A DNA stretch of 64,000 nucleotides, taken from Oceanispirochaeta sp. (GTDB taxonomy: Bacteria; Spirochaetota; Spirochaetia; DSM-2461). Shown one piece after another: positions 47,783-61,792 of the stretch. The stretch lies in assembly GCA_963663385.2 (NCBI GenBank), contig CAXXXD010000003.1, positions 1,585,649 to 1,649,648 of the forward strand, written 5' to 3'. Made by a program: the position numbers and the translations under genes. The notes below the pieces were generated by a model. It did no database searches. It was given only the letters and a program-made list of their open reading frames with translations, and was not told the origin of the DNA. The first letter of the stretch is position 1. Each line of letters opens with the position of its first letter.

Positions 47783-47799
47783 GGTCTCTTTTCAGAGAT

Positions 47800-47850
47800 A
47801 AAAACGCCCCCCTCTCGGCAGCGCTCGAGGATCCTGGGGGCGTTTTTTTT
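47800..47850 (+). terminator. Intrinsic terminator ending the ABC operon; marks the left edge of the accessory region
   Basis: AAAAACGCCCCC...GGGGGCGTTTTTTTT. Confidence 0.85.
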
Positions 47851-47877
47851 GTTGGTAGTCTTACGGAAAAATGATCT

Positions 47878-48780
47878 TTGTCTTATTATAGCAGTATGTC
47901 TTTCAACTATGATTCATGTTTATCCCTTTCCGGGGAAATCGATGCTGCTACTGGATTATACTACTACAATGCACGGTGGTATGATGCGGGGACCGGAAGG
48001 TTTATATCGGAAGACCCGGCTAGAGACGGCCAAAACTGGTTCAATTATGTATCAAACAACCCTCTAAAATTTGTCGATCCTACAGGAATGCGCCGTGTTG
48101 ATGGCGATAGTGCTGATGATGAAAGAGATCGAGAGCAGAGAAATACGGAATATGAAAAAAAGAAAAGCGATAGAAAAGATAGAAGAGATGCACAAGGCAG
48201 AGAAGATCGAAGAAATGATCTTAAAGATAAAAAAGATGATCTGATTAATTCCGGTATGGATAATGACCGAAATATAGATCGGCTTAATGAACAGATTCAA
48301 GCAGTTGAAGATGAGATAATGGATAATATAACTGAAGCTGCATATGATGAAATATCTGAAACGGTTGATGAAATCCTTAACAATGGTTTGGCCGAAACAG
48401 CGAAATCGTTTGTAGGTGGTAATTATCATTCTGGTGGAGAAACTCCATCACCTGAAGGACAAGGATTAGACTGTTCTTCGACATCTATGATTTCAGCTGA
48501 AACAGTAAGTGGTGTTGGTATTGGTGATCGAACTGCTGATGAAATGGCCAATGATCCTAACCTACTGAAACCGGGAAATGGTGGAGTGGGTTCTCAAAAC
48601 TTTTATGATTGGGATGGTGATGGTGTTTACGATCATGTTACGACAGTTACAGAAGCAGGAGAAGTTCATCCATCATCAAATGCTGGTAAAATTAATATGG
48701 TTGAAAATGGCTTCTTAGATCAATATGCAAAGAAAAAGATAAATAAAAACTACAATTGGGGTTATATTTTATGGGATTGA
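47878..48780 (+). CDS. Orphan Rhs core plus C-terminal toxin 1 (NlpC/P60-like peptidoglycan hydrolase); 5'-truncated, start uncertain
   Basis: EIDAATGLYYYNARWYD...GRFISEDP...YVSNNPLKFVDPTG Rhs core. C-terminus AKSFVGGNYHSGG...GLDCSS...YDHV...EVHPSS follows the NlpC/P60 Cys-His-His order. Confidence 0.8.
   Translation: MSYYSSMSFNYDSCLSLSGEIDAATGLYYYNARWYDAGTGRFISEDPARDGQNWFNYVSNNPLKFVDPTGMRRVDGDSADDERDREQRNTEYEKKKSDRKDRRDAQGREDRRNDLKDKKDDLINSGMDNDRNIDRLNEQIQAVEDEIMDNITEAAYDEISETVDEILNNGLAETAKSFVGGNYHSGGETPSPEGQGLDCSSTSMISAETVSGVGIGDRTADEMANDPNLLKPGNGGVGSQNFYDWDGDGVYDHVTTVTEAGEVHPSSNAGKINMVENGFLDQYAKKKINKNYNWGYILWD
47959..48130 (+). repeat. Rhs-core direct repeat, copy 1 (pairs with 57116-57293)
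   Basis: 40 bp exact match, 48001-48040 = 57158-57197; similarity runs from the YYYN codons through DPTGMRRVDG...DDERD. Confidence 0.9.
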
Positions 48781-49232
48781 GGAATATTTTTCTAATAACA
48801 GTACAAATCCTTTTATTTTCATCAGTAATATTTTCTGATGATATAATATTATTAAATAAAAAGTCTGCTGACTTCGAATTAATAATAGATGATGACATTG
48901 TTCAGATTTACACTGATTATTATTCTGATTCAGACATATGTGAAAGCTTCATAGGTGTTCTGAAGTCTGATATTAATCGGGATCATGTAATTTATTTTCA
49001 TGATGATATACTTGAAGATGCAACAGGGAAAATCTTGATATCATTTAAGAATCATGAGTTAATCTTTTATGGATTTAAGATGAAATTGTCTTACCCAAAT
49101 AATAAAGAATATTCTCCGGGTATAGTTTTAACTCCTTATTTTGCCTCTGGAAATTCTGTAGGAGATACTAAGACATTTAATTGGGATTATAAGAATAAAA
49201 CCTTTAAAGATGCTTTTTCTCACATTCCGTAA
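48771..49232 (+). CDS. Putative immunity protein 1 (exported)
   Basis: Overlaps the toxin stop codon; AT-rich; N-terminus MGLRNIFLITVQILLFSSVIFS is signal-like. Confidence 0.75.
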   Translation: MGLRNIFLITVQILLFSSVIFSDDIILLNKKSADFELIIDDDIVQIYTDYYSDSDICESFIGVLKSDINRDHVIYFHDDILEDATGKILISFKNHELIFYGFKMKLSYPNNKEYSPGIVLTPYFASGNSVGDTKTFNWDYKNKTFKDAFSHIP

Positions 49233-49234
49233 AT

Positions 49235-49292
49235 TCATAACGTCCATGCTCACCTGCAGGCTTGCCTGTCTGGTGCAGCACTGTTGTTATGA
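49235..49292. repeat. attC-like imperfect palindrome, copy 1 (58 bp)
   Basis: TCATAAC-gtccat-GCTCACC...GGTGCAGC-actgtt-GTTATGA: complementary outer boxes and one unpaired base in the inner arm. Confidence 0.7.
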
Positions 49293-49580
49293 CCCCTAAT
49301 TTTATTTTTCGCCGGAATGACATTTCACGTTGAAAAAGCTTTTCCGGCAGTAACCGCAGGCCGAACCTCCGCCGTCGTGGCTCCGGTTCTGATCAGAAAA
49401 TCCGTTATCTGCAGCTGCCGTCCCTGGCAGCTGTCCGCTTCGCCATATAACGAATTCTCTGTTCACCTGCTTTTAGTGGTAAGTTTATAGATTCCAGAAT
49501 AATTTTATACAGGAGCTGGCGGAGTGTTTTCTCTTTTTATCATAATTGCAAAAATGTAGTTACAATAGTATAATTATATT

Positions 49581-49868
49581 ATGACCTTTGAATGGGATAA
49601 AGAAAAAGACATAATCAACCAGAAGAAACACGGATTGTCATTCAAAGACGCCAAGTATGTTTTTGCCGACCCGTTTGCCCTGGTTCGTGAGGATTACACG
49701 GATTCAGAGCCCCGTCAGCAAATTATGGGGCATATCGGCGGCATTCTGCTGGTGCTTGTGGTTTACACCATGAGAGATCAGCAGGATGAAGACGTTTTCA
49801 GAATAATATCTGCCCGAAAAGCAACAACGGCAGAGAGGAGGAAGTATGAAGCAGGAAAATGGTTTTAG
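49581..49868 (+). CDS. BrnT-family toxin
   Basis: FEWDKEK...NQKKHGLSF...RIISARKAT..ERRKY. Confidence 0.92.
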   Translation: MTFEWDKEKDIINQKKHGLSFKDAKYVFADPFALVREDYTDSEPRQQIMGHIGGILLVLVVYTMRDQQDEDVFRIISARKATTAERRKYEAGKWF

Positions 49869-50139
49869 TCCTATGGATGAAGACACAAAGGCAAGACTCG
49901 CCAAGCTTGCCGAATTACCCGACTCCGAAATAGATACCAGTGACATAAAAGAGTGGTCTGATGAGGATTTTTCCAGGGCCGTCCCTTTTCACGATATTTA
50001 CAAGCCCAGGAAAGAGCAGATAACCACCCGAATCGATGCGGACATTCTTCTTTGGCTAAAAAGTCATGGTAAAGGGTATCAGACTTTGCTGAATGATTTA
50101 CTTCGAAAAGAGATGAATATGGAATGCAGTAAGCAGTAA
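49846..50139 (+). CDS. BrnA-family antitoxin
   Basis: IDTSDI...KEQITTRIDADILLWLKSHGKGYQT; overlaps brnT. Confidence 0.9.
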   Translation: MKQENGFSPMDEDTKARLAKLAELPDSEIDTSDIKEWSDEDFSRAVPFHDIYKPRKEQITTRIDADILLWLKSHGKGYQTLLNDLLRKEMNMECSKQ

Positions 50140-50191
50140 GCAGGGTTAGGTTTCTCATTCTCTTTGTAATAGCCGGATATCGAAAGAATAT

Positions 50192-50587
50192 CTATTTGGA
50201 TTGATTTTCCTTTAATTCATTCATGGCTCTCAAATCCTTGATATGCTCAAGGATTTTTTTTTGGTCTGCCGGTGGGAGTTCTTCCAGTTCTTTCAGGCGT
50301 TTTGTAAGTTTCAGATTTGTATCCTGTGCAAGAATATTTTCATCCTTCAGCCCGAAAAGAGTGTCAGTCGAGACATTCAGAGCAATGGCGAATCTTGCTA
50401 TCATTTCATCATAAAGTCGGACTCTTCCGCTTTCATAGGCAGATAATGCGGTTCTTGTAATGCCAATTGTTTCAGCCAATTCAAGCTGTGTAAGTCCTCT
50501 CTGTTTTCTTATTTTGGCAATGATTTCACCAATGCTTTTGTCACTGATTTTTAAAGGGGGTAATTCTTTCTTCGGTACTTGAGGCAT
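50192..50587 (-). CDS. XRE-family HTH transcriptional regulator
   Basis: IRKQRGLTQLELAETIGITRTALSAYESG; divergent from the replication operon. Confidence 0.92.
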   Translation of the reverse strand: MPQVPKKELPPLKISDKSIGEIIAKIRKQRGLTQLELAETIGITRTALSAYESGRVRLYDEMIARFAIALNVSTDTLFGLKDENILAQDTNLKLTKRLKELEELPPADQKKILEHIKDLRAMNELKENQSK

Positions 50588-50830
50588 GATTTATCTTATC
50601 ATATAACTTGACGAGTGATACATGATGTGTCATTATTAAACAGTCAAATGCTACTTGACACACTTTTGAAATATTGCCGTTGGCAATAAAAAAGCCCGTT
50701 TCCGAGTGTTTGGCGACCTTCGGGAAACAGGCTTAAAAACAACATAGGAGTAGAACTCCATGCACTTACAATTCTACCATAAATTCTTATCCCCGCAAAT
50801 GCCGTTCTGCTCCTTCCGATGGAGTAAAGA

Positions 50831-51115
50831 ATGGAAATCCGCACCAGCGACCTGTACGAGGCCGCCTACTACCTGACTAAAGGGGTAACGCCCCACCTGG
50901 TTACCTGCCGCCTTCTGGCCGGGAACGTCACCAAAGATATCATCTGCGACTTCTACTTCGAAGGAGAAGTCATTCCTCATCTTCAAAGCGACTTTTTGAG
51001 AAGTGAAGCGGTTGTCAATCTGGTTCTCTTCCGCCGTTGTTACGGAGAGATCAACAACTACGCCAACAATGCCAAGCGGGACTACCGGAAAAGCATGAAA
51101 GGGGGCCACCAGTGA
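50831..51115 (+). CDS. Small hypothetical protein (DUF5659-like)
   Basis: GGAG RBS; TSDLYEAAYYLTKG motif; first gene of the coupled operon. Confidence 0.65.
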   Translation: MEIRTSDLYEAAYYLTKGVTPHLVTCRLLAGNVTKDIICDFYFEGEVIPHLQSDFLRSEAVVNLVLFRRCYGEINNYANNAKRDYRKSMKGGHQ

Positions 51116-51378
51116 AAGACAGCCTCATAACAGCCAACCTGGCCGAAGTCGCCTACCTTTTGGATCAGCACCACCGGCTGGTCGATGTTTACCTGAGCAT
51201 GGGAACCCTGGGAGCCCAGGAGATGGTTTTCACTCTGGAAGGAGAGAACATTACCGGAGACCGTAAACTTTTTCTGGGTACCTGCCGGACTCCTTTGAAG
51301 AAGATCCCCGAGACTCTGGAAGTGATCCGGAACCTCCTCTGGAAGAAGGAAGAGGAGGCCCAGTGTGAATCTAGATAA
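51112..51378 (+). CDS. Small hypothetical protein, probable paralogue of the upstream ORF
   Basis: GTGA start/stop overlap; TANLAEVAYLL...FTLEGE aligns with TSDLYEAAYYL...FYFEGE. Confidence 0.65.
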   Translation: MKDSLITANLAEVAYLLDQHHRLVDVYLSMGTLGAQEMVFTLEGENITGDRKLFLGTCRTPLKKIPETLEVIRNLLWKKEEEAQCESR

Positions 51379-52171
51379 AATGGGTGATGCAAAGCATCAG
51401 GGCCCCATTCTTAGTCGCCAAAAGATCGTATTTACCAACCAGAAAGGCGGGGTCGGCAAGACCACCATGACAAGAGAACTGGGCTGTTACCTGGCCCATG
51501 ATAAAGGGCTGAAAACCCTTCTGGTAGACTGTGACAGCCAAGGCAACCTTTCCAGAAGTTTCTTCGACCAGCCGGGAAAAGGACTGTACGAGGCCATTAC
51601 AGAAGATGAAATTCACGTTCAAAGTGTCAGTGAGAATCTTGAGATCCTTTCCGGATCGATCTATCTCAGCCTGCTGGAAAAACAGCTTGTGGGAGAGTTC
51701 GACGGCTATGTACGGTTTAAGGAGCTTTTCGAACGGGAGGAGTTCGAATCCTACGATTTTATCCTGATGGATACTCCCCCTTCCCTGGGAATCCTCACGG
51801 GCAATGCCCTTGTAGCCGCCGATCACCTTGTGATGCCCATTACAGCCAGTCAGTACGCCCTGCAGGGAGCTTCGGACCTTCTGGAAACCATGGAGAAGAT
51901 CAGGCGGAGCCTGAACCCGACTCTTTACGCCCTGGGAGTCGTCCTTAACAGCTACAACCCGGTTACCCTGATCGGCCGGGAGCTGAAAGCCGAACTGACC
52001 GGGTTCTTCGGAGAAACCTGTTTTGAGACCGTGATCAGCCGGTCGATCCGGATCGAGGAAGCCATTGCCGAGAGGAAGGGCCTGGTCCAGCTGTCCGGTA
52101 ACCAATGGAAAAGGCCCGCGGAGGAAGTAAGGGCTCTGGGGAATGAACTTTTATCCCGGTGCGGTCTATGA
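51365..52171 (+). CDS. ParA/Soj-family ATPase
   Basis: NQKGGVGKTT, VDCDSQGN, DFILMDTPPSLG. Confidence 0.93.
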   Translation: MNLDKMGDAKHQGPILSRQKIVFTNQKGGVGKTTMTRELGCYLAHDKGLKTLLVDCDSQGNLSRSFFDQPGKGLYEAITEDEIHVQSVSENLEILSGSIYLSLLEKQLVGEFDGYVRFKELFEREEFESYDFILMDTPPSLGILTGNALVAADHLVMPITASQYALQGASDLLETMEKIRRSLNPTLYALGVVLNSYNPVTLIGRELKAELTGFFGETCFETVISRSIRIEEAIAERKGLVQLSGNQWKRPAEEVRALGNELLSRCGL

Positions 52172-54828
52172 CTTCTTCAAAGCTGAAAGGCAGGAGCCCT
52201 TTGAAGGGGGCTTCCCTGCTGGACGAGTTTGAAAAAGACCGGATCAAGGCACAAACCGATATAGTCAGTGTGATTACCTCCTATGGTATCTCTCTCGAGA
52301 AGAAAGGCTCTTCTTTCATGGGGCTGTGCCCCTTCCATGAGGACAAGAATCCTTCTCTTTCGGTGGACCAGTCCAAGGGACTGTTTCACTGTTTCGGCTG
52401 CGGGGCCGGCGGGGATGTGTTTGACTTTGTGATGAGGCACCAGGGCGTGGAGTTTAAAGAGGCTCTGGCTATCTTGAAAGGAGATGAGGGAAAGGCATTC
52501 AGGCCGAAGGAGGTACCGGCTCCGCCGGTGCCACTGGAGGGCGAACCTCTGCTTAAAACAACCTCATTGGAAGATGTAACGGATTACTATCACCGTCAGC
52601 TCTCCCATCCGGAAGCAGTTTCCTACCTGAAAAAACGGGGGATCTATGCTCCGGAGCTTCTGGGACGGCTGAAAGTCGGCTACTGCCCCGGAGACTTGAA
52701 AGACAAACTGTCCGAAGTCCAGTTTCAGGAGCTGAAAGAGGCGGGCCTCTTTACGGAAAAGAACCTTGAAACCTTCCGGGACTGCATTGTTTTCCCACTC
52801 TATTCTTCCGATGGGAAAGTCCGGAGATTTTACGGCAGGAAGATAAATGAAAGGTCCAGGGTGAAACACCTTTATTTGAAAGGGCCCCACCGGGGCCTGT
52901 TTAACCACCAGGCATTCAAGGTTTACCCGGACCGGATGATCCTGACAGAATCGGTGATTGATGCCTTTTCGCTGATGGTTTTGGGATGCGAAAATGTTTC
53001 CTGCTCTTACGGCGCCAACGGGGTGACCAGTCACCTTGTAGAAGCTTTGAAAGAAAACCGTACAAAGGAAGTTGTCCTTGCTTTCGACGGTGATGAAGCG
53101 GGCCGGGAGGCTGCAGAAAAGGTCGGAAAAACTCTTTTCGAAAAGGGTATTGCCGTCAGAACCATCTTCCCGCCTTCCAAGGACTGGAATGAGTCATTAC
53201 CAAAAATCACAAAGGAACAAGTTCTATCCCTGATCGAGAGCAGCATTCTGAAACCGCCGGAGGGTGATAAAAGGCCACTGGTGGCCGATGGTAAGTACCT
53301 GTTTCATTGTTCTTCTCTGGATTACCGGATCATCGGAGTTAAAGAAGGATTTGTCAGTTCCCTGAAGGTGAATGTCCGCTGTCAGAGGCCGGCGGATGAT
53401 ACTGTCAAGTTCATCGACAATGTAGACCTCTTCTCCGCCCGGAGCCGGACCCTTTTCTCTGTCGCGGTCGCTCGCCGGTTCGGCGAGGAATCCGCCAGGA
53501 TTGAAAAGGATTTACTGGATATCCTGGACTATTTGGAAGAAGAGTCTGAACGGGCCCTTTCGGATACCGGTTTAAAGAAGGGGTCTTTGACCCCTGAGGA
53601 AGAGGCAGCTGGCCTCTCCCTTTTACAGGATCCCAATCTTTTCGACAGGATTGTCAGGGATACGGAAGCTCTGGGCTACGTGGGAGAGGAGGAAAACAAG
53701 ATCCTTATGTACCTGGCCGCCTCCTCCCGTCTGATGGCCGATCCGGTAAGCGTAATCGTCATCTCCCAGTCCGCCGCTGGTAAAAGCTTTCTGATCGATA
53801 CGGTAAAAAAGCTGATGCCCGAAGAGGATGTGATTTCCATGACCAGCCTTTCCGACCAGGCCTTGAACTACCTTCCCGATGAAGCTCTGCTGCACAAGTT
53901 TCTGGTCATGGGAGAGGCGGTCCACTCGGAGAGCGTAGATCATCAGATGCGGGAGATGTTATCCGGAAAAGAGCTGTCCCGATTGGTGACCACCAAGGAT
54001 GAGAAGACCGGAAGAATGACCAGCAAGCTGGTACGGAAAAAAGTCATTGTTTCCGCCGTGATGTCCTCCACTTCGACGGAGATCAACCCGGAGAACGCCT
54101 CCCGCTGCTTTGTGGTAAACACAGACGAGAGCCGGGAGCAGACCAGGGAGATCCACCGGAGGCAGAGGGAGAAGTACACCCTGGAAGCCTACCGGAAGAA
54201 GGAAGAAGATCTCCCGGAAATCATTAAGACCCACCAGGCCGCCCAAAGGCTCCTGAAAAACCGGGTAATTGTTAATCCTTTCGCCGGGGAGCTGGACTTT
54301 CCCTCTTCCATGATGCGGAGCCGGCGGGACCATGAACGGTTTGTAGACCTCATTGCCTGCGTGTGCTTCCTGAGGCAGTACCAGAAACAGGAGAAGAATG
54401 ATCAGGGGAAGCATTACATAGAGTGCGACCTGGAAGACTACAAGGTGGCTTACCGGATCATGAAGACCCTGCTTTCTTCCACCATGACCACTTTACCCCG
54501 TTCGGCTGTCATTTTGTATGAGGAGCTCCGGGATCTTCTTAAAAGCAAAGCGGAGAAGGACGGGCTATTCCTGACCGATATCTGGGTGACCCAGCGGGAG
54601 ATCCGGGAGGTCTCCGGATTCTCCCATGAGCTGATCAAGAAGAATATGAGGCTTTTGACAGAGTATGAATACATCCGGAGCAAAGGATCGGGCCGGGGTA
54701 TGACCAGGCGTTACGGACTGGCGGCTGATTCTGACCTAGTTCTTTTCGATGACTCGGTGATTCCTTCACCTGACCATTTAACCAGGGAACCGGGTACAAA
54801 GCGGGTACGGAATGATGAAAAACAATAA
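52168..54828 (+). CDS. DnaG-type primase (CHC2 zinc finger + Toprim) fused to a C-terminal P-loop ATPase/helicase-like domain
   Basis: CPFHEDKNPS...FHCFGC; ILTESVIDA and AFDGDEAG (Toprim); SQSAAGKS Walker A; ATGA overlap with parA. Confidence 0.9.
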   Translation: MTSSKLKGRSPLKGASLLDEFEKDRIKAQTDIVSVITSYGISLEKKGSSFMGLCPFHEDKNPSLSVDQSKGLFHCFGCGAGGDVFDFVMRHQGVEFKEALAILKGDEGKAFRPKEVPAPPVPLEGEPLLKTTSLEDVTDYYHRQLSHPEAVSYLKKRGIYAPELLGRLKVGYCPGDLKDKLSEVQFQELKEAGLFTEKNLETFRDCIVFPLYSSDGKVRRFYGRKINERSRVKHLYLKGPHRGLFNHQAFKVYPDRMILTESVIDAFSLMVLGCENVSCSYGANGVTSHLVEALKENRTKEVVLAFDGDEAGREAAEKVGKTLFEKGIAVRTIFPPSKDWNESLPKITKEQVLSLIESSILKPPEGDKRPLVADGKYLFHCSSLDYRIIGVKEGFVSSLKVNVRCQRPADDTVKFIDNVDLFSARSRTLFSVAVARRFGEESARIEKDLLDILDYLEEESERALSDTGLKKGSLTPEEEAAGLSLLQDPNLFDRIVRDTEALGYVGEEENKILMYLAASSRLMADPVSVIVISQSAAGKSFLIDTVKKLMPEEDVISMTSLSDQALNYLPDEALLHKFLVMGEAVHSESVDHQMREMLSGKELSRLVTTKDEKTGRMTSKLVRKKVIVSAVMSSTSTEINPENASRCFVVNTDESREQTREIHRRQREKYTLEAYRKKEEDLPEIIKTHQAAQRLLKNRVIVNPFAGELDFPSSMMRSRRDHERFVDLIACVCFLRQYQKQEKNDQGKHYIECDLEDYKVAYRIMKTLLSSTMTTLPRSAVILYEELRDLLKSKAEKDGLFLTDIWVTQREIREVSGFSHELIKKNMRLLTEYEYIRSKGSGRGMTRRYGLAADSDLVLFDDSVIPSPDHLTREPGTKRVRNDEKQ

Positions 54829-54954
54829 TTGTTGTTCTGGTAAGGGATTAGCCGAAAGTGGGAAAACCGGGTACAGGCCGACTATTCGGCTTAAAGTTAA
54901 ATCCGGTAAAGGTTTAGGAGAAAGTGGGTACAAAATCCCGGAGAGAGACAGAGC

Positions 54955-56001
54955 ATGAATAATGATAAAAGGCTGACGCGAGAGCGTCAGGGTTCCTTTT
55001 CTCATAAAGCGGCAGGAACTTCCCGAAGGGAAGTGTCCGGAAGCGCAGGAAACATACATAAAGCCCATCAAACCCTGCTAGACAGCTATCTGGAAGAGAA
55101 AAAAGCCCTGGGAGCTTCTTCCCAGGCTCTCCGGAACGCCCACAGCCGGATTCCCCATTTTCTGGCCTATCTGGAAGAAGAAGGACTGACGGCGGATCAG
55201 ACGGACATCCGGGCGGCCAGAGGCTTCATGGCACACCTTACAGAACGGGGAACCGGAAGCGGAGAAGACTACAGGGTAAACACCCTGGCTTCCTACCGTC
55301 AGGCCGCTTCCTCCTTCAGCCGGTGGATGAGGGATTCGGGAAAGCTTGTTTCCGATCCCTTTACCGCCGTCAAAGCTCCCCGGGGTGAAAGGATCATTCC
55401 CAGGGATTTACCCATGGAGAAAGAACTGGCCCGGCTTCTCTCCCGTCTGGCGGACTTCTCTGCCGTGAAGGGACTGAAAGCCCGGAAAAGGCGGTATTTG
55501 ACCCATGTGCTGGCCGAGCTGCTTTACGCCTCGGGCCTCCGAATCAGCGAAGCGGCTGACCTTCAGGAAGAGAACCTGAATCTTGAAAGGAAAGAGATCA
55601 CCGTTATCTCCGGCAAGGGAGGATTCGACCGGAAGGTCTACCTGAACGACTACGCCGCCAGTGTATTAAGGCGGTTTCTAACCGTTCGGGATGAGATCCT
55701 GACCGGCAAGAGCAACAGGGAAAGGCTTTTCGGCTCTTCCTCGGATGAACTGGGAAAGGCTTTCAACAGGGATCTGAAAGAGGCTTGCGAAGAAGTCGGA
55801 ATTCCTTTTATGACAGCCCACAGCCTCCGGCACTGTCTGGGCTACCATCTTCTGAAACAAGGCTGCCCCTTGAGGCAGATTCAGCAGATCCTGGGGCACC
55901 GGGCCATCGGGAACACCGAGATTTACACCAAAGTGGATGTGAAAGAGGTAAAGGAGCAGCTGGACCGCCACCATCCCAGACAGCTGGGAAAAAGGAGATG
56001 A
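54955..56001 (+). CDS. Tyrosine recombinase 1 (XerC/D-like)
   Basis: YASGLRISE, GKGG, HSLRH, LGH, TEIY; start could lie further downstream. Confidence 0.92.
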   Translation: MNNDKRLTRERQGSFSHKAAGTSRREVSGSAGNIHKAHQTLLDSYLEEKKALGASSQALRNAHSRIPHFLAYLEEEGLTADQTDIRAARGFMAHLTERGTGSGEDYRVNTLASYRQAASSFSRWMRDSGKLVSDPFTAVKAPRGERIIPRDLPMEKELARLLSRLADFSAVKGLKARKRRYLTHVLAELLYASGLRISEAADLQEENLNLERKEITVISGKGGFDRKVYLNDYAASVLRRFLTVRDEILTGKSNRERLFGSSSDELGKAFNRDLKEACEEVGIPFMTAHSLRHCLGYHLLKQGCPLRQIQQILGHRAIGNTEIYTKVDVKEVKEQLDRHHPRQLGKRR

Positions 56002-57017
56002 AAAGACTCTCAAGGCAGAAAGCCCTTTCCCTTTTCGCCGGATACCTGAAGGCCCAGGGATTTAAAGAGGGAACTATTCGGACAAAGAAAGCTCAGCTTA
56101 CCCCCTTCTTTACCTTTTTGGATGAAACTGGCACGAAAGACATCCGGGATGTGAAAAGGAGTGATATTGTCTCCTTCCTTTCCTGGCTGCAGGAGCATCC
56201 CGGAGAGAGAGGACGGGGCTACAAGGACTCAACGAGGATGAGTATTTTCACCTCCGTGAAAAAGTTCTATCTCTGTTTGTATGAAAACAACCTGGTTTTG
56301 TCCTCACCGGTGGAGACAGTCCGCTTCGGGAAACGGCAGGAGCGGATCAAAGAAGTTTTGAGTGAGGACGAGACCGCACTCTTTCTGGATTCCATCGATA
56401 TTCACCAGCCCCTGGGGCTCCGGGACAGGGCCCTGTTTGAACTGATTTACTCTTCCGGTCTCCGGTCTTCCGAAGCGGCCCATCTGGATGTGAAAGATTA
56501 CGATCCGGCCAGCCGGTTATTGTGGATCCACCAGAGCAAGTTTTCCAAGGACCGCCGGGTCCCAGTGACCAAGGCGGCCGCCTGGTTTCTGGATAAGTAT
56601 CTGGAAGGCGTGAAAGCACACCACAGGCCTCTGATCCTTTCCGGGGGCTACCGGTTTACTCACGGAGGGATCAACAAACGGTTTAAACTGCTGAGTGAAA
56701 AGTGCGGACTCTACCGGAAAGGGCTGACCGTCCACTCCCTCCGGCACGGCTGTGCTTCCCATCTTCTGGCCCACGGGGCGGAGATCCGCTATGTTCAGGA
56801 GCTTTTGGGGCATGAATCGGTGGAAACCACGGTGGTTTACTCCCGGCAAAGCGAAGAGAACATCAAGGCTTCCTACAGGCAGTACCATCCCAGGGAGAAT
56901 TTCCATTTCGCCGAGGTGACCGACTCCTATCTTGATTCACTGGAAACTCTGGTTCGGGACAGTCTGAAGCAAAGAGAGAAGAATAGAAAAGCGCTTGCCC
57001 GTAAGATAGGTAAATGA
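55998..57017 (+). CDS. Tyrosine recombinase 2 (XerC/D-like)
   Basis: ATGA overlap and AGGAG RBS; LRDRALFELIYSSGLRSSE, SKFSKDR, HSLRH, LGH, TVVY. Confidence 0.93.
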   Translation: MKRLSRQKALSLFAGYLKAQGFKEGTIRTKKAQLTPFFTFLDETGTKDIRDVKRSDIVSFLSWLQEHPGERGRGYKDSTRMSIFTSVKKFYLCLYENNLVLSSPVETVRFGKRQERIKEVLSEDETALFLDSIDIHQPLGLRDRALFELIYSSGLRSSEAAHLDVKDYDPASRLLWIHQSKFSKDRRVPVTKAAAWFLDKYLEGVKAHHRPLILSGGYRFTHGGINKRFKLLSEKCGLYRKGLTVHSLRHGCASHLLAHGAEIRYVQELLGHESVETTVVYSRQSEENIKASYRQYHPRENFHFAEVTDSYLDSLETLVRDSLKQREKNRKALARKIGK

Positions 57018-57034
57018 TAGTTTATTAACGTACC

Positions 57035-57994
57035 ATGACAGCTACTAGAGAAATTCCAGTTTCAACGCCTCCTTGCAGGTCTCCTTTTTGCAACGATTTA
57101 GGGGGAGAGGGTGATTATTACTACAATGCAAGGTGGTATGATGCGCAGACGGGGAGATTTATATCGGAAGACCCGGCTAGAGACGGCCAAAACTGGTATT
57201 CATATGTAACAAATAATCCGCTGAAATACATAGATCCTACCGGAATGCGCCGTGTTGATGGTGATGGTGATGGTGCAGATGATGAGAGAGATCAGAAAGA
57301 TCGTCAACGAGAACAGCGAGAAAGAAATCGAGAAGCAAAGAAGAAAACAAAAATAAGAGATACTACTGATAGGATTAAAGACCTTCAGGAAAATGGAACT
57401 GGTGGATTATGGGATCGGTTTAGAATTTCCAATAATAAAGCGAGATTGAAAAATCAATTGAAATCTCTTGCATCAACTGGCTCTGATAATGCCAGAGACT
57501 GGATTAAAGCAAATACTGAAATCAATATTACCCGTGGTGTATATGAAACACCTGGTAGCGATGATTGGGATGGCCAAATGAATCTAGATTTTCAAGGTGT
57601 TACTTTGGAATCAATAAGAGTTCAAACTTGGGCTGATGATGAAAATCAAGAATTTGGAATCGATGGTACTATAGCTACAGGTATAAGTATTCAAGGTGAA
57701 TTACTTGATTGGGGAAATAATCCTGATAGAATTTATCTTTTTGATCCTGGATTTAATATTCATGGACTACCTGAGGGTGTGACAAATCCAGGAAGTTTAG
57801 GATGTATAATTGGCCAAAATGGAGATTATACTAACTTCACTTCAACAATGAAGGATATTGGTTTCAGATTTGGAACAAGTGCAAAGAGTCTTAATGATCC
57901 ATCAGATCTGATAAATGTTAATATAAAAACAGTTAATCCATATGATCGAGGTCTTCATAATCTAGGATATATGCTACCGAGGGGAAATAGATGA
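57035..57994 (+). CDS. Orphan Rhs core plus C-terminal toxin 2 (L,D-transpeptidase-fold, Tlde1/DUF2778-like)
   Basis: YYYNARWYD...GRFISEDP...NNPLKYIDPTG core; C-terminal GFNIHG-x8-SLGCI motif; the first 27 aa are not Rhs-like. Confidence 0.78.
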   Translation: MTATREIPVSTPPCRSPFCNDLGGEGDYYYNARWYDAQTGRFISEDPARDGQNWYSYVTNNPLKYIDPTGMRRVDGDGDGADDERDQKDRQREQRERNREAKKKTKIRDTTDRIKDLQENGTGGLWDRFRISNNKARLKNQLKSLASTGSDNARDWIKANTEINITRGVYETPGSDDWDGQMNLDFQGVTLESIRVQTWADDENQEFGIDGTIATGISIQGELLDWGNNPDRIYLFDPGFNIHGLPEGVTNPGSLGCIIGQNGDYTNFTSTMKDIGFRFGTSAKSLNDPSDLINVNIKTVNPYDRGLHNLGYMLPRGNR

Positions 57995-58833
57995 AGAAAA
58001 GAGTATTATATCTGTTCTTTTGTTTTGTCTGTTATCCTTTATTTTCAAATAATATTTTAGAGGGTAAAACATATAGTTCTGATGTGAATGGATTAAGGCA
58101 GATAATTGAATTTAGTGACGGTACATTGAAATATACCGCGTATTATGACGGAGATAAGGATGAAGAATATTCCACTACTTATCGAGTTGAAGAAAATGAG
58201 GGTATTTCATATTTAGTATTAGGTAAAGAATCAGAAAAATGGCTTGCTATGTTATCTGAAGATTATATCTTTCTGTATAAGGAAGATGGCGAGCCTTTTT
58301 TTGATGGATGGTGGACTGGATCAAAATTTGACCCGACATTATTCAATTACTATAGTAAAGACCTTTTTGAGACTGACAGTTTTCTTATTGAAGAAATAGA
58401 CAATAAGAAAATATCATACCCTTCAGCAAATCTAGGAACAATTGCAATACCATATCCATGGGTAGAAGGTGATGAGAATGATGGTGTCGGGGTACACATT
58501 ACAGGACTCTTTAATTCAGGAGAAAGATTCCAGCATTACTTAGTGTTTTCAAATGGTTATGTCTCATATAAAAGGCCTGACTTATACAGAAAGAATGGTA
58601 GAATTAAAAAAATTCGTATAACAGATATTGAATTGGGTAAATCAAAAGATGTTGATATTAAAGATACTCCAAATCTACAGTATATTTATGTTTCTGATAT
58701 TATAACAGGTAATAAAGGTTTTACGATTGAGATCTTAGAAACATATAGTGGAAGTAAATACAATGATACTTGTATCAATTTCCTGGGAGTCTATTATGTT
58801 CATAATACAAGCCCCTTATTTGATTATAAATAA
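57991..58833 (+). CDS. Putative immunity protein 2 (exported; C-terminal discoidin/NADase-type glycan-binding-like domain)
   Basis: ATGA overlap with the toxin; signal peptide MKKRVLYLFFCFVCYPLFS; PWVEG...NGY...LYRKNGRIKKI...IEILETYSGSKYNDTCI. Confidence 0.72.
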   Translation: MKKRVLYLFFCFVCYPLFSNNILEGKTYSSDVNGLRQIIEFSDGTLKYTAYYDGDKDEEYSTTYRVEENEGISYLVLGKESEKWLAMLSEDYIFLYKEDGEPFFDGWWTGSKFDPTLFNYYSKDLFETDSFLIEEIDNKKISYPSANLGTIAIPYPWVEGDENDGVGVHITGLFNSGERFQHYLVFSNGYVSYKRPDLYRKNGRIKKIRITDIELGKSKDVDIKDTPNLQYIYVSDIITGNKGFTIEILETYSGSKYNDTCINFLGVYYVHNTSPLFDYK

Positions 58834-58912
58834 CCATGAGCTCACCTGCCCAACTGCTGAACAATCCGTTCCGGAACCAGTAAAACGGACAGGTGCAGCG
58901 CTCTTGTTATGA
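58828..58912. repeat. attC-like imperfect palindrome, copy 2 (85 bp)
   Basis: AAATAAC-catga-GCTCACCTG...CAGGTGCAGC-gctctt-GTTATGA; the immunity stop codon TAA lies inside the left box. Confidence 0.7.
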
Positions 58913-59201
58913 TTCCCAATTTAATTCTTTCGCCGGAATAACATTTCACGTTGAAGAAGTCTTACCGGCAGTAATCGCAGGCCGAACCTCCGCCGTCGTG
59001 GCTCCGGTTCTAAACAGAAAATGCGTTATCTGCAGCTGCCGTCCCTGGCAGCTGTCCGCTTCGCCATATAACGAATTCTCTGTTCACCTGCTTTTAGTGG
59101 TAAGTTTATAGATTCCAGAATAATTTTATACAGGAGCTGGCGGAGTGTTTTCTCTTTTTATCATAATTGCAAAAATGTAGTTACAATAGTATAATTATAT
59201 T

Positions 59202-59489
59202 ATGACCTTTGAATGGGATAAAGAAAAAGACATAATCAACCAGAAGAAACACGGATTGTCATTCAAAGACGCCAAGTATGTTTTTGCCGACCCGTTTGCC
59301 CTGGTTCGTGAGGATTACACGGATTCAGAGCCCCGTCAGCAAATTATGGGGCATATCGGCGGCATTCTGCTGGTGCTTGTGGTTTACACCATGAGAGATC
59401 AGCAGGATGAAGACGTTTTCAGAATAATATCTGCCCGAAAAGCAACAACGGCAGAGAGGAGGAAGTATGAAGCAGGAAAATGGTTTTAG
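59202..59489 (+). CDS. BrnT-family toxin (copy 2)
   Basis: Translation identical to 49581-49868. Confidence 0.92.
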   Translation: MTFEWDKEKDIINQKKHGLSFKDAKYVFADPFALVREDYTDSEPRQQIMGHIGGILLVLVVYTMRDQQDEDVFRIISARKATTAERRKYEAGKWF

Positions 59490-59760
59490 TCCTATGGATG
59501 AAGACACAAAGGCAAGACTCGCCAAGCTTGCCGAATTACCCGACTCCGAAATAGATACCAGTGACATAAAAGAGTGGTCTGATGAGGATTTTTCCAGGGC
59601 CGTCCCTTTTCACGATATTTACAAGCCCAGGAAAGAGCAGATAACCACCCGAATCGATGCGGACATTCTTCTTTGGCTAAAAAGTCATGGTAAAGGGTAT
59701 CAGACTTTGCTGAATGATTTACTTCGAAAAGAGATGAATATGGAATGCAGTAAGCAGTAA
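59467..59760 (+). CDS. BrnA-family antitoxin (copy 2)
   Basis: Translation identical to 49846-50139. Confidence 0.9.
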   Translation: MKQENGFSPMDEDTKARLAKLAELPDSEIDTSDIKEWSDEDFSRAVPFHDIYKPRKEQITTRIDADILLWLKSHGKGYQTLLNDLLRKEMNMECSKQ

Positions 59761-59812
59761 GCAGGGTTAGGTTTCTCATTCTCTTTGTAATAGCCGGATA
59801 TCGAAAGAATAT

Positions 59813-60208
59813 CTATTTGGATTGATTTTCCTTTAATTCATTCATGGCTCTCAAATCCTTGATATGCTCAAGGATTTTTTTTTGGTCTGCCGGTGGGAGT
59901 TCTTCCAGTTCTTTCAGGCGTTTTGTAAGTTTCAGATTTGTATCCTGTGCAAGAATATTTTCATCCTTCAGCCCGAAAAGAGTGTCAGTCGAGACATTCA
60001 GAGCAATGGCGAATCTTGCTATCATTTCATCATAAAGTCGGACTCTTCCGCTTTCATAGGCAGATAATGCGGTTCTTGTAATGCCAATTGTTTCAGCCAA
60101 TTCAAGCTGTGTAAGTCCTCTCTGTTTTCTTATTTTGGCAATGATTTCACCAATGCTTTTGTCACTGATTTTTAAAGGGGGTAATTCTTTCTTCGGTACT
60201 TGAGGCAT
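59813..60208 (-). CDS. XRE-family regulator (copy 2)
   Basis: Translation identical to 50192-50587. Confidence 0.92.
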   Translation of the reverse strand: MPQVPKKELPPLKISDKSIGEIIAKIRKQRGLTQLELAETIGITRTALSAYESGRVRLYDEMIARFAIALNVSTDTLFGLKDENILAQDTNLKLTKRLKELEELPPADQKKILEHIKDLRAMNELKENQSK

Positions 60209-60451
60209 GATTTATCTTATCATATAACTTGACGAGTGATACATGATGTGTCATTATTAAACAGTCAAATGCTACTTGACACACTTTTGAAATATTGCCG
60301 TTGGCAATAAAAAAGCCCGTTTCCGAGTGTTTGGCGACCTTCGGGAAACAGGCTTAAAAACAACATAGGAGTAGAACTCCATGCACTTACAATTCTACCA
60401 TAAATTCTTATCCCCGCAAATGCCGTTCTGCTCCTTCCGATGGAGTAAAGA

Positions 60452-60736
60452 ATGGAAATCCGCACCAGCGACCTGTACGAGGCCGCCTACTACCTGACTA
60501 AAGGGGTAACGCCCCACCTGGTTACCTGCCGCCTTCTGGCCGGGAACGTCACCAAAGATATCATCTGCGACTTCTACTTCGAAGGAGAAGTCATTCCTCA
60601 TCTTCAAAGCGACTTTTTGAGAAGTGAAGCGGTTGTCAATCTGGTTCTCTTCCGCCGTTGTTACGGAGAGATCAACAACTACGCCAACAATGCCAAGCGG
60701 GACTACCGGAAAAGCATGAAAGGGGGCCACCAGTGA
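60452..60736 (+). CDS. Small hypothetical protein (DUF5659-like, copy 2)
   Basis: Translation identical to 50831-51115. Confidence 0.65.
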   Translation: MEIRTSDLYEAAYYLTKGVTPHLVTCRLLAGNVTKDIICDFYFEGEVIPHLQSDFLRSEAVVNLVLFRRCYGEINNYANNAKRDYRKSMKGGHQ

Positions 60737-60999
60737 AAGACAGCCTCATAACAGCCAACCTGGCCGAAGTCGCCTACCTTTTGGATCAGCACCACCGGCT
60801 GGTCGATGTTTACCTGAGCATGGGAACCCTGGGAGCCCAGGAGATGGTTTTCACTCTGGAAGGAGAGAACATTACCGGAGACCGTAAACTTTTTCTGGGT
60901 ACCTGCCGGACTCCTTTGAAGAAGATCCCCGAGACTCTGGAAGTGATCCGGAACCTCCTCTGGAAGAAGGAAGAGGAGGCCCAGTGTGAATCTAGATAA
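60733..60999 (+). CDS. Small hypothetical paralogue (copy 2)
   Basis: Translation identical to 51112-51378. Confidence 0.65.
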   Translation: MKDSLITANLAEVAYLLDQHHRLVDVYLSMGTLGAQEMVFTLEGENITGDRKLFLGTCRTPLKKIPETLEVIRNLLWKKEEEAQCESR

Positions 61000-61792
61000 A
61001 ATGGGTGATGCAAAGCATCAGGGCCCCATTCTTAGTCGCCAAAAGATCGTATTTACCAACCAGAAAGGCGGGGTCGGCAAGACCACCATGACAAGAGAAC
61101 TGGGCTGTTACCTGGCCCATGATAAAGGGCTGAAAACCCTTCTGGTAGACTGTGACAGCCAAGGCAACCTTTCCAGAAGTTTCTTCGACCAGCCGGGAAA
61201 AGGACTGTACGAGGCCATTACAGAAGATGAAATTCACGTTCAAAGTGTCAGTGAGAATCTTGAGATCCTTTCCGGATCGATCTATCTCAGCCTGCTGGAA
61301 AAACAGCTTGTGGGAGAGTTCGACGGCTATGTACGGTTTAAGGAGCTTTTCGAACGGGAGGAGTTCGAATCCTACGATTTTATCCTGATGGATACTCCCC
61401 CTTCCCTGGGAATCCTCACGGGCAATGCCCTTGTAGCCGCCGATCACCTTGTGATGCCCATTACAGCCAGTCAGTACGCCCTGCAGGGAGCTTCGGACCT
61501 TCTGGAAACCATGGAGAAGATCAGGCGGAGCCTGAACCCGACTCTTTACGCCCTGGGAGTCGTCCTTAACAGCTACAACCCGGTTACCCTGATCGGCCGG
61601 GAGCTGAAAGCCGAACTGACCGGGTTCTTCGGAGAAACCTGTTTTGAGACCGTGATCAGCCGGTCGATCCGGATCGAGGAAGCCATTGCCGAGAGGAAGG
61701 GCCTGGTCCAGCTGTCCGGTAACCAATGGAAAAGGCCCGCGGAGGAAGTAAGGGCTCTGGGGAATGAACTTTTATCCCGGTGCGGTCTATGA
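60986..61792 (+). CDS. ParA-family ATPase (copy 2)
   Basis: Translation identical to 51365-52171. Confidence 0.93.
   Translation: MNLDKMGDAKHQGPILSRQKIVFTNQKGGVGKTTMTRELGCYLAHDKGLKTLLVDCDSQGNLSRSFFDQPGKGLYEAITEDEIHVQSVSENLEILSGSIYLSLLEKQLVGEFDGYVRFKELFEREEFESYDFILMDTPPSLGILTGNALVAADHLVMPITASQYALQGASDLLETMEKIRRSLNPTLYALGVVLNSYNPVTLIGRELKAELTGFFGETCFETVISRSIRIEEAIAERKGLVQLSGNQWKRPAEEVRALGNELLSRCGL

Follow-up and report, generated by a model that had tools for sequence, protein, structure and literature searches.

The window, a stretch of 64,000 nucleotides from Oceanispirochaeta sp., contains a 9621-bp unit bracketed by two successive hairpins in the same orientation (Table 1). From left to right the unit carries a conserved stretch called the P region, a BrnTA toxin-antitoxin pair, a repressor-like gene, ParA, a primase, two Xer-like recombinases, an Rhs tip and a putative immunity gene. 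The P region includes the inverted repeats GCCGGAA..TTCCGGC and CAGCTGCC..GGCAGCTG and a promoter-like site at 49546-49574, immediately upstream of brnT. The two small ORFs matched no known family in Pfam/NCBIfam searches, and tblastn placed them at the same position in the relatives G003, G007, G017 and G019. A longer frame for recombinase 2, starting at 55785, overlaps recombinase 1 and has stop codons in relatives. A second tandem unit follows, with the P region 95% identical to 58915-59214 and the remainder of the unit 99.7% identical; beyond the contig end it is resumed by contig C2 in its reverse strand, where 1873023-1865147 matches 49325-57199. The window's contig and C2 overlap at their ends inside this one array. 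What lies between the hairpins, regarded in a preliminary description of this DNA as exchangeable cargo, is no small cassette but the whole 9621-bp unit with its replication and recombinase genes.

Table 1. Features at and around the 9621-bp unit, in window coordinates
Feature	Position	Strand	Evidence or remark
Orphan Rhs C-terminal tip 0	47878..48780	+	TIGR03696 Rhs_assc_core, 64.7 bits
Putative immunity gene 0, 158 aa	48756..49232	+	Role from position only
Candidate attC-type hairpin, sequence type 1 (site 1)	49235..49292	+	58 nt; model R1, 65.8 bits
Conserved P region behind hairpin	49293..49580	+	AT-rich run and further inverted repeats
BrnT/BrnA toxin-antitoxin pair	49581..50139	+	PF04365, 4e-23; PF14384, 1e-15
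HTH_3 (Cro/cI-type) regulator	50192..50587	-	PF01381, 4e-14
Two small ORFs, 94 and 113 aa	50831..51378	+	Conserved across element family
ParA-type ATPase	51365..52171	+	PF13614, 4e-42
DnaG-type primase, 889 aa, long C-terminal extension	52159..54828	+	PF01807 (CHC2 zinc finger), PF13155 (Toprim); TIGR01391, 211.6 bits
Tyrosine recombinase 1, Xer-like	54955..56001	+	PF00589, 1e-30
Tyrosine recombinase 2, Xer-like	55998..57017	+	XerD, 189 bits
Orphan Rhs tip A	57035..57994	+	TIGR03696, 55.7 bits
Putative immunity gene A, 280 aa	57991..58833	+	PF25302, 6e-16; NF047619, 82 bits
Candidate attC-type hairpin, sequence type 2 (site 2)	58828..58912	+	85 nt; 41-nt loop; model R1, 19.1 bits
Second tandem unit, start	58915..64000	+	99.7% identical to 49272-54379

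The "toxin cassettes" of the preliminary description are more precisely pairs whose upstream genes are orphan Rhs C-terminal tips, starting with the conserved core-end YYYNARWYDA. Tip 0, of which a copy with 99.9% identity lies on contig C4, consists of a short core-end (..TGLYYYNARWYDA) and a putative toxin domain that matched no Pfam family; its immunity gene had no match in Pfam or NCBIfam. Tip A has its own ATG and a 25-codon leader ahead of the core-end, a leader that is kept in G003 and G007, and immunity gene A encodes an NADase-type glycan-binding (discoidin-like) domain. The genome holds seven Rhs core-end matches, all in frames of 278-330 aa and each paired with one hairpin. In relatives the element lies in tandem directly behind full-length rhs genes; the arrays are immediately preceded by open frames that measure 3443, 3390, 1683 and 3418 aa (G019, two loci of G017, G003).

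The only recent rearrangement that can be traced is a 9251-bp duplicate, 99.9% identical, with both breakpoints in the Rhs core-end and none in a hairpin, which does not bear out the earlier proposal that cargo is exchanged at the hairpins. Contigs of public runs likewise contained no joints at hairpins, a point against an attC reading, and the depth of run X4 (169 over the backbone, 65 over the single-copy flank) fits three integrated copies with no excess. Tips could conceivably move only by homologous recombination between the core-end and the hairpin plus P region, as in C-terminal displacement, the hairpin being mere homology; both ends of the duplicate lie in YYYNAR-coding core-end, and circles arising by homologous recombination have been proposed (PMC2935791). 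We consider this decidedly unlikely, because homology alone does not explain the compensatory changes, the fixed unpaired bases and the confinement of divergence to spacers and loops described below, and because conservation rightward of the hairpin extends over little sequence, 0 to ~180 bp at solo sites.

Both hairpins lie where they were first reported, and re-reading the sequence gave the same spacers, 6/6 in site 1 (TCATAAC / GTCCAT / GCTCACC..GGTGCAGC / ACTGTT / GTTATGA) and 5/6 in site 2 (AAATAAC / CATGA / GCTCACC..GGTGCAGC / GCTCTT / GTTATGA). The "single unpaired base" stood as a C in the 3' arm, 3 bp above the spacer, but a second one, 6 bp further in (T in site 1, A in site 2), had been overlooked. 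The loop of site 1 is only 13 nt, whereas the long loop of site 2, together with an outer box that forms 5 of its 7 pairs, accounts for the low score of that site with model R1. Chance does not explain the two hairpins, as their right half (GGTGCAGC-N6-GTTATGA, at most one mismatch) has two matches in the window against 0.01 in shuffles. As single-stranded DNA, site 1 folds at -13.3 kcal/mol on the + strand (z -3.5) and -11.9 on the - strand (z -2.8), and site 2 at -10.5 (z -1.3) and -14.8 (z -3.0), respectively; the folds overall range from -10.5 to -16.2 kcal/mol, and in the bottom-strand-like sense six of the seven strands folded reach z -3.0 to -3.5, site 2 with its z of -1.3 being the exception.

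At each site the hairpin begins 0-12 nt past the stop codon of the preceding gene, a tight packing that favors an attC reading. The same position directly behind a stop codon would suit a purely transcriptional or RNA signal, a terminator or insulator that keeps transcription of the rhs tip and immunity genes from running on into the toxin-antitoxin and replication genes, with the likeness to attC arising by descent or convergence. The G+C-rich inner stem is followed by T-rich sequence (..CTTGTTAT.., with ATTTTATTTTT 6 nt later) and G-T pairs form on the sense strand, as such a signal would have it, but the T-rich sequence comes only past the spacer and R box, and neither site is among the + strand calls of a terminator scan, which gave 16 sites over 12 kb versus 13.2 in shuffles. 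A terminator would also have no need for non-complementary spacers of fixed length, a fixed unpaired C or an invariant AAC/GTT box, and we judge a signaling role alone to be quite unlikely.

Model R1, built from the hairpins and applied with E values up to 10, finds seven hairpins genome-wide, one behind each of the seven Rhs tip/immunity modules, a constant association that favors the attC reading. Relatives carry further hairpins of the same family, including those behind the solo tips in G007:C1 and G008, so that the search for more copies behind cargo suggested in the preliminary description had a positive outcome at all seven modules and beyond. The family comprises at least four sequence types, 58-87 nt long and with compensatory changes. 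We parsed 25 sites, 20 from this family and 5 attCs from the genome's resident integron arrays, and one scheme fits all of them, again in favor of attC: the 5' half consists of a 7-bp outer box, 4-6 unpaired bases, 3 bp, 6 bp and the variable loop, and the 3' half of an unpaired T or A, 6 bp, an unpaired C, 3 bp, the spacer and the outer box. The central spacer is unpaired over 4-6 nt per side in every parsed site, its 3' side usually ending in TT ahead of the R box, and the unpaired C 3 bp above it is present in 24/25. The T or A adjoining the 6-bp stem is a second unpaired base in types 1, 2 and 4 and in G017 (longer stem) and the final loop base in type 3. AAC/GTT occupies the R box of 19 of the 20 family sites (G017_C1_R has AAG/CTT), and loop length is 13, 14-15 or 35-42 nt among family members, compared with 54-92 nt for the resident attCs.

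A covariation test on eight sequences found that 96.1% of cells pair, with three pairs changed on both sides; the score was reached by 0/500 shuffles, and slid controls pair at 25-75%. Across the 20 sites stem pairs 1-3 change in concert, and in the 3-bp box the middle pair is C-G in 10, T-A in 9 and A-T in 1. Differences between species are confined to spacers, unpaired base and loop, and spacer sequence differs between hairpins that are otherwise identical. The pairing appears to be under selection, which we count toward the attC reading, as we do the apparent reassortment of hairpins against neighboring sequence: each of types 1-3 occurs with the following inverted repeat, ~20 nt distant, in its long as well as its short form, and behind differing upstream genes, and in G007:C1 similarity ends exactly at the right R box.

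The hairpin and P region might instead form the replication origin of the unit, the hairpin providing a single-strand initiation signal for the DnaG-type primase beside an AT-rich unwinding stretch. In RSF1010 and phage G4 hairpins of this kind are recognized by primases, the element has genes for a primase and ParA but none for an initiator recognizable in family searches, and an AT-rich run with more inverted repeats does lie behind the hairpin. An origin is nevertheless highly improbable given that the hairpin is kept at solo tips in genomes without the primase, that depth shows no copies beyond the integrated ones and that the match to resident attCs would have to be coincidence.

An attC site is defined by an R box cleaved within 5'-AAC-3' and an L box, with an unpaired central spacer between them, together with 2-3 extrahelical bases and a terminal structure that varies (PMC11641012), and the hairpins share with it the imperfect palindrome of ~60-150 nt, the AAC/GTT R box, unpaired spacer, L box, extrahelical bases and variable loop (PMC11641012), as well as the location directly behind a gene. 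The attC layout originally claimed is thus borne out, down to details common to the genome's own integron attCs: the five resident sites parsed have the same layout, and shared with the hairpins are the R box ..ATAAC/GTTAT.., the TT before GTT and a stem ending in CTG. The extrahelical base, a G in textbook attC sites, is a C in hairpins and resident attCs alike. An Rfam search returned no relevant family, and a loose scan for the bare layout gave 545 matches in the genome versus 456 in the shuffled genome; since the layout is not rare by chance, the attC case rests on conservation and not on layout alone.

Several observations count against the attC reading. Model R1 finds none of the resident attCs in the genome, the 3' spacer is mostly 6 nt in hairpins versus 5 nt in resident attCs, and group II introns sit in resident attCs but in 0/7 hairpins. 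Compared with resident cassettes the hairpins are inverted relative to the tip genes; the strand resembling the recombined strand of resident attCs is inverted with respect to the tip and immunity genes, in agreement with the earlier suspicion that the canonical strand is the minus strand. In G017:C1 the hairpins on either side of one unit point in opposite directions, one of them with AAG/CTT in place of AAC/GTT, and in G019 distant relatives of the element have another conserved block at the hairpin position.

Isolated attCs far from intI are known outside integrons (CALIN, SALIN), single attCs without an integrase are common, and IntI inserts attC-bearing plasmids into genomes outside att sites (10.1101/2022.09.11.507474). 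The window sites, 9621 bp apart, form neither a cassette array beside intI nor a cluster of closely spaced attCs; integron cassettes are small and promoterless, whereas successive sites here enclose a replicon-like unit with two recombinases of its own. Judged by their sequence, the hairpins appear to be real attC-type sites in a new setting, and we infer that they recombine and which enzyme would act on them.

Neither local recombinase is an IntI, as was recognized at the outset: recombinases 1 and 2 score 90.3 and 103.3 bits with the integron integrase model TIGR02249 (cut-off 265), and both align with a gap where the genome's IntI has the ~40 extra residues of the IntI insertion. The best NCBIfam matches of recombinase 1 are XerD/XerC at 154 bits, under their cut-offs. 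The absence of IntI initially reported holds for the window but not for the genome, where a search found an IntI with the insertion (G000:C2:1688005-1688940, 381 bits), ~175 kb from the end of the array on C2. IntI scores over the cut-off in four of the five element-bearing genomes tested, so that an enzyme would be at hand, although its frequency in the clade (24/41 relatives) means that co-occurrence with the element says little.

The hairpin could also be the attachment site of the element's own Xer-like pair, with one recombinase on the outer box and the other on the inner box and no role for IntI, a model likened to XerC and XerD acting on the folded single-stranded attP of phage CTX. That attP forms a stem from two inverted half-sites, unpaired at its centre, and tandem arrays are typical; folded stem, Xer-type recombinases and tandem arrays all have counterparts here, but the unit lacks phage genes and a rolling-circle replication protein and copies the host attC layout. 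The order of two adjacent Xer-like recombinases and then an Rhs tip is conserved across genera at 34-40% protein identity, G003, G007, G017, G019 and L068 all have tandem arrays, the differing outer and inner box sequences suit a heterodimer, and in G019 the divergence of the recombinases is matched by a different block behind the immunity gene. Yet the G019-type block also lies behind tips in a G019 rhs locus without the element backbone, and in G008 the hairpin is intact but a search with recombinase 2 yields only housekeeping Xer proteins (best E 2e-32). The detailed copying of host integron attCs, and the Rhs core-end ~100 bp behind recombinase 2, which is a more usual att place and holds the only traced breakpoints, likewise make a Xer-only attachment site unlikely.

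The reading we prefer, with a probability of roughly 40%, is that the hairpins represent attC sites of the integron type, whose recombination likely takes place on folded single strands and is most probably carried out by the genome's IntI in trans. If two hairpins recombined, the unit would come out as a circle that carries, besides one hairpin and one Rhs core-end, genes for its own replication and partition. The circle could integrate again at a further hairpin or at an rhs core-end, and in the latter case would fuse the new tip to the resident Rhs and push the old tip downstream. A more doubtful extension is that this 9.6-kb unit, as a self-replicating and partitioned episome, might be the missing vehicle of Rhs tip displacement, bringing a spare tip and an integron-type hairpin for leaving and entering the chromosome, the fold being used by IntI, the Xer-like pair or both.

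Comparable arrays in another phylum are those of recombinase-associated acquired interbacterial defence (rAID). In these Bacteroidales clusters one predicted tyrosine recombinase heads an array of small genes, with co-oriented orphan immunity genes and conserved intergenic motifs as here, but as described in the accessible part of the source they lack genes for replication or partition as well as a folded layout resembling attC (PMC12247911). The Rhs displacement model of 2009 postulates an episomal circle with a core fragment, a tip and intervening genes (Jackson et al. 2009, PMC2935791). It needed a stable circular carrier, and in the accessible portion of that paper no integrase was then known to travel with Rhs (PMC2935791). 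Displaced-tip arrays behind an rhs gene, each tip with a short core fragment, are common to that model and the loci of relatives, and the 9251-bp duplicate bounded by core-ends has exactly the shape of the postulated circle, to which the unit here adds a primase, ParA, two tyrosine recombinases and a putative attC-type site. A literature search found no description of an integron-type site linked to Rhs tip displacement.

Polymorphic toxins, Rhs proteins included, diversify through swapping of their C-terminal tips, and this element family offers a candidate circular carrier with replication, partition and recombinase genes, in which every tip is tagged by a site with the architecture of the host's integron attCs. 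Were the hairpins active, single-strand recombination of the integron type would extend past small cassettes to a 9.6-kb replicon, the spread of toxin tips between loci and species would be explained, and the family would be a natural test case for the use of attC-like folds by Xer-like enzymes. Should the episome reading be true, integron chemistry would be tied to polymorphic toxins and the attC fold would serve whole replicons too.

Every Rhs tip module of this Oceanispirochaeta genome (G000) is closed by an attC-type fold that is under selection. The two hairpins claimed in the preliminary description are both present in the window, where their right half (GGTGCAGC-N6-GTTATGA) gives 2 matches against 0.01 in shuffles. 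A strict pattern search of the whole genome (5.3 Mb) returned 4 hairpin copies, and a covariance model built from 8 hairpins returned 7 matches, with no others at E up to 10. A model of the Rhs core-end also gave exactly 7 genome matches, every one in a frame of 278 to 330 aa, and the order at all 7 is tip (an orphan Rhs C-terminal domain), second ORF, and hairpin, the last starting 0 to 12 nt past the stop codon. Copies of the motif after cargo, which the preliminary description had proposed to look for, stand behind all 7 modules. Solo modules at unrelated loci comprise a tip, an immunity gene, a hairpin, and 0 to 180 bp of the P region (the conserved noncoding stretch behind the hairpin), often with a toxin-antitoxin pair.

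Among related genomes, G008 has kept a well-formed hairpin behind a solo tip, and a recombinase 2 search found no element copy in that genome. On contig C1 of G017, two hairpins border one unit in mutually inverted orientation, one of them with AAG/CTT. A different conserved block occupies the hairpin position in G019, also between the tips of an rhs locus without backbone. The G019 block behind a tip module is ∼300 nt long and G+C rich, with many inverted repeats and a terminal stem plus T-run, and resembles a structured RNA; the displaced tips of a second rhs locus (L155) are separated by a related block. Scanning metagenomes with the left half-site gave 120 stretches, 80 of which were searched with the hairpin model; 3 of these 80 matched weakly (23 to 26 bits), none with element genes and one between housekeeping genes.

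We parsed 20 sites from G000, G003, G007, G008, G017, and two metagenome contigs, and all 20 share a common layout. From the outside, this consists of a 7-bp R box (mostly TCATAAC/GTTATGA), 4 to 6 unpaired bases, a 3-bp box, a 6-bp stem, a loop of 13 to 42 nt with T or A beside the stem, and the returning 6-bp stem, followed by an unpaired C (19 of 20 sites; A once), 3 bp, a spacer, and the R box. The sites fall into at least 4 sequence types. The 3-bp box occurs as GCT/AGC, GTT/AAC, or GAT/ATC and the stem as CACCTG, CTGCTG, or AACCTG, each with its complement, and since the variants match on both arms, pairing has been preserved through two-sided changes. In an alignment of 8 sequences, 96.1% of cells pair and 3 pairs are altered on both sides; none of 500 shuffles reached the covariation score, and slid controls gave 25 to 75% pairing. 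Stem position 5 is free (T-T in 8 sites, T-A in 8, T-G in 4), and within one hairpin type, differences across species are confined to the spacers, the unpaired base, and the loop. This pattern of change indicates that selection acts on the fold, beyond sequence alone. That the hairpins are terminators and nothing else is distinctly unlikely, given that a terminator scan calls neither site. An Rfam search over 47000 to 64000 (E up to 1) gave three weak, irrelevant matches and nothing for the hairpins, and the window contains no tRNA. Loose structural searches for the layout by itself were too noisy to use, with 545 genome hits versus 456 in a shuffled genome, and a search of the window alone was as noisy. 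We also dropped a dif-like interpretation of the right half (GGTGC..TTATG) because the spacing is off by two and the motif is absent from type 3.

The hairpins share the attC layout of the host, whose IntI lies elsewhere in the genome. The preliminary description had reported no IntI, which holds for the window; a true integron integrase is encoded on contig C2 (381 bits, cutoff 265). To its left, defense-type cassettes occupy the opposite strand, with group II introns breaking up their series, and intact resident attCs are located on C3 and C4. Four resident attCs and one from the IntI-adjoining array in G017 follow the same scheme as the hairpins, with the unpaired C in the same place, an ..ATAAC/GTTAT.. 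R box, GTT preceded by TT, and a stem whose top is CTG. The accessible text of PMC11641012 defines attC sites by these same parts and locates the cut within the R-box AAC. The resident sites differ from the hairpins in having 5-nt spacers of conserved sequence and longer loops, and the covariance model built from hairpins recovers no resident attCs. The strand that has its unpaired bases in the 3′ arm runs antisense to the cassette genes of the IntI-adjoining array, whereas for the tips in the window this strand is the sense one; the polarity is thus opposite, and we agree with the preliminary description that the canonical attC reading is on the minus strand. In that reading, and presuming the usual arm to be cut, the crossover would sit at the left edge of the hairpin, by the immunity stop codon. 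IntI exceeds the cutoff in 4 of the 5 element-bearing genomes tested and also in 24 of 41 relatives, so its co-occurrence with the element is uninformative.

The cassette array adjoining IntI (L009) contains PIN_8, DUF2441, and Abi_alpha genes and is broken up by four ends of one group II intron, IS66, and IS21. Wherever an attC is recognizable, the introns lie directly after ..TTG of its right arm; 0 of the 7 Rhs-linked hairpins hold an intron, despite the same ..CTTG ending.

What the preliminary description called toxins we identify as orphan Rhs tips with putative immunity genes. The tips open with a conserved Rhs shell end (..TGLYYYNARWYDA..TGRF) and continue into unrelated C-terminal domains. 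Between successive hairpins, the 9,621-bp unit carries the noncoding P region, BrnT/BrnA, a Cro/cI-type regulator on the opposite strand, two small conserved ORFs, ParA, an 889-aa DnaG-type primase, two Xer-like tyrosine recombinases, and the next tip with its immunity gene. Within such a replicon-like unit the hairpin could serve as a replication signal, which we consider highly improbable. Both recombinases match XerD/XerC best (154 to 189 bits, below cutoffs) and score 90 and 103 bits with the integron integrase model; the alignment leaves gaps where the genome's IntI carries ∼40 extra residues, bearing out the earlier remark that they lack the IntI insertion. By these comparisons the local recombinases are Xer-like, not IntI-like. 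That this pair, encoded on the element itself, recombines the hairpins is unlikely. Tips on the element have their own ATG and a conserved 25-codon leader. G000 (98% complete) has 7 Rhs tips and no full-length rhs gene, and the element's tips may be produced on their own or be retained solely for the sake of the immunity genes. Behind tip A, the immunity position is occupied by a gene that encodes an NADase-type glycan-binding (discoidin-like) domain, unusual in an immunity protein.

In relatives, this replicon-like tandem element is located behind rhs genes. Recombinase 2 has close copies in G003 and G007 and relatives at 34 to 40% identity in G015, G017, G019, G031, G038, and three further spirochete contigs. 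Of 79 loci from a contig scan with recombinase 2, most encode ordinary Xer proteins and only 7 (L066 to L072) are members of this element family. All element copies keep the order primase, recombinase 1, recombinase 2, Rhs core-end; they are spaced 9 to 10.7 kb apart in G003, G007, G017, and G019, and L068 also has a second unit. The array is preceded at close range by the end of a full-length rhs frame (1,683 to 3,487 aa) in G019, G017 (two loci), and G003; a whole-genome Rhs core-end search found none left in G000. The arrays behind full-length rhs show the same arrangement as the C-terminal displacement described in the accessible part of PMC2935791.

Coordinates of hairpins, element genes, and related features
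Feature	Location	Strand	Remark
Hairpin 1	window 49235-49292
Hairpin 2	window 58828-58912
Recombinase 1	window 54955-56001	+
Recombinase 2	window 55998-57017	+
Tip A	window 57035-57994		leader 57035-57109
Immunity gene A	window 57991-58833
Segment repeated on C4	window 47949-57199		99.9% identical
Unit copy at C2 end	G000:C2:1865147-1873023	reverse	last 7.9 kb of C2
Array-end pair	G000:C2 ∼1862500-1863500	opposite	PIN-type (VapC-like)
Array-end pair	G000:C4 ∼1138300-1138900	opposite	RelE/Phd-like by reading of translations
Array-end pair	L045 16435-16936 (G007)	opposite	RelE/Phd-like by reading of translations
IS21 (istA/istB)	L045 12236-14292 (G007:C2)
IntI	G000:C2:1688005-1688940
IntI-adjoining array (L009)	G000:C2:1668001-1688000
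∼300-nt block	G019:C1:3388975-3389290 (L046 8975-9290)
Related block	L155 3030-3300, 4500-4770

The window makes up the terminal 64 kb of contig C3. The sequences that follow its two hairpins diverge by 5% over their first 300 bp. The second unit runs off the end of C3 and resumes on the reverse strand of C2, where the array ends with a third tip, a hairpin, and ∼180 bp of P; C4 carries a third copy of the backbone. Overlapping copies of one unit form the last 5.1 kb of C3 and the C2 end. Tandem units broke the assembly at window position 64000, where C3 and C2 probably join, which would put IntI on the replicon of the array, ∼185 kb past it. Each array closes with a partial unit that has another toxin-antitoxin-like pair at its end, encoded on the opposite strand; in this slot, full units hold BrnTA on the forward strand and G003 units ∼2.6 kb of other cargo. 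There is thus a second variable cargo slot directly behind the P region. In G007, an IS21 is inserted behind the last hairpin of the array.

Several traces of past recombination are readable. The C4 duplicate of the window segment has different left flanks and a different following tip, and both its ends lie inside the YYYNAR-coding core-end; thus, the last traceable move went through the core-end, by homologous or site-specific exchange. A hairpin that offers homology only is very unlikely in our view. The left border of between-site similarity is always the left R box, and dissimilar immunity genes stand upstream of one hairpin type. The next inverted repeat, ∼20 nt past the R box, has long and short forms, each found with types 1, 2, and 3, and on C1 of G007 similarity ends at the R box itself. 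Given these variable combinations on either side, the hairpin acts as a module with exchange-prone borders, which would fit an R-box crossover, the events being old and other causes possible. At the window's locus, empty-site comparison revealed no attachment site because relatives carry variable DNA behind the permease gene. The solo site on C4 measures 87 bp in G010, with no hairpin, versus ∼1.8 kb in G000, where the insert comprises a tip, an immunity gene, a hairpin, and 84 bp of P together with two genes similar to the G007 RelE/Phd pair.

Eight public runs are listed, all as contigs, and we compared four. Their depths fit three integrated backbones (in run X4, backbone 169 and flank 65), and their contigs, which cannot reveal rare circles, starts, or ends, contain no joint at a hairpin. 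The only joint near a hairpin, from 57144 to 58830, reflects a different cassette with identical flanks on either side. In run X3, one contig attaches a different, Rhs core-like sequence (translation ..GKQWDEDAQL) to the core-end at 57116, a junction absent from the assembly; a further rhs copy or variant may be present in the culture or sample that was sequenced. Across window 47868 to 58717, tip A and its immunity gene stand at 0.67 to 0.77 of single-copy flank depth in two runs, and the X3 backbone is at 1.7× versus 3× expected. These low depths may stem from base-composition bias or from a mixed population in which fewer units are present, two causes that contig depths do not separate.

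Taking IntI and the Xer-like pair together, the odds that the hairpins are recombined seem somewhat better than even. Our preferred reading is recombination by IntI in trans (probability roughly 0.4), the more likely enzyme because the host layout is copied, the G008 hairpin is intact, and there is precedent in the accessible part of 10.1101/2022.09.11.507474. Our literature searches turned up no account that ties attC-like sites to Rhs or other polymorphic toxins, and the closest parallel is the rAID clusters of Bacteroidales. Folded hairpin strands would be the recombination substrates, and the 9.6-kb unit would be the circle carrying new tips.
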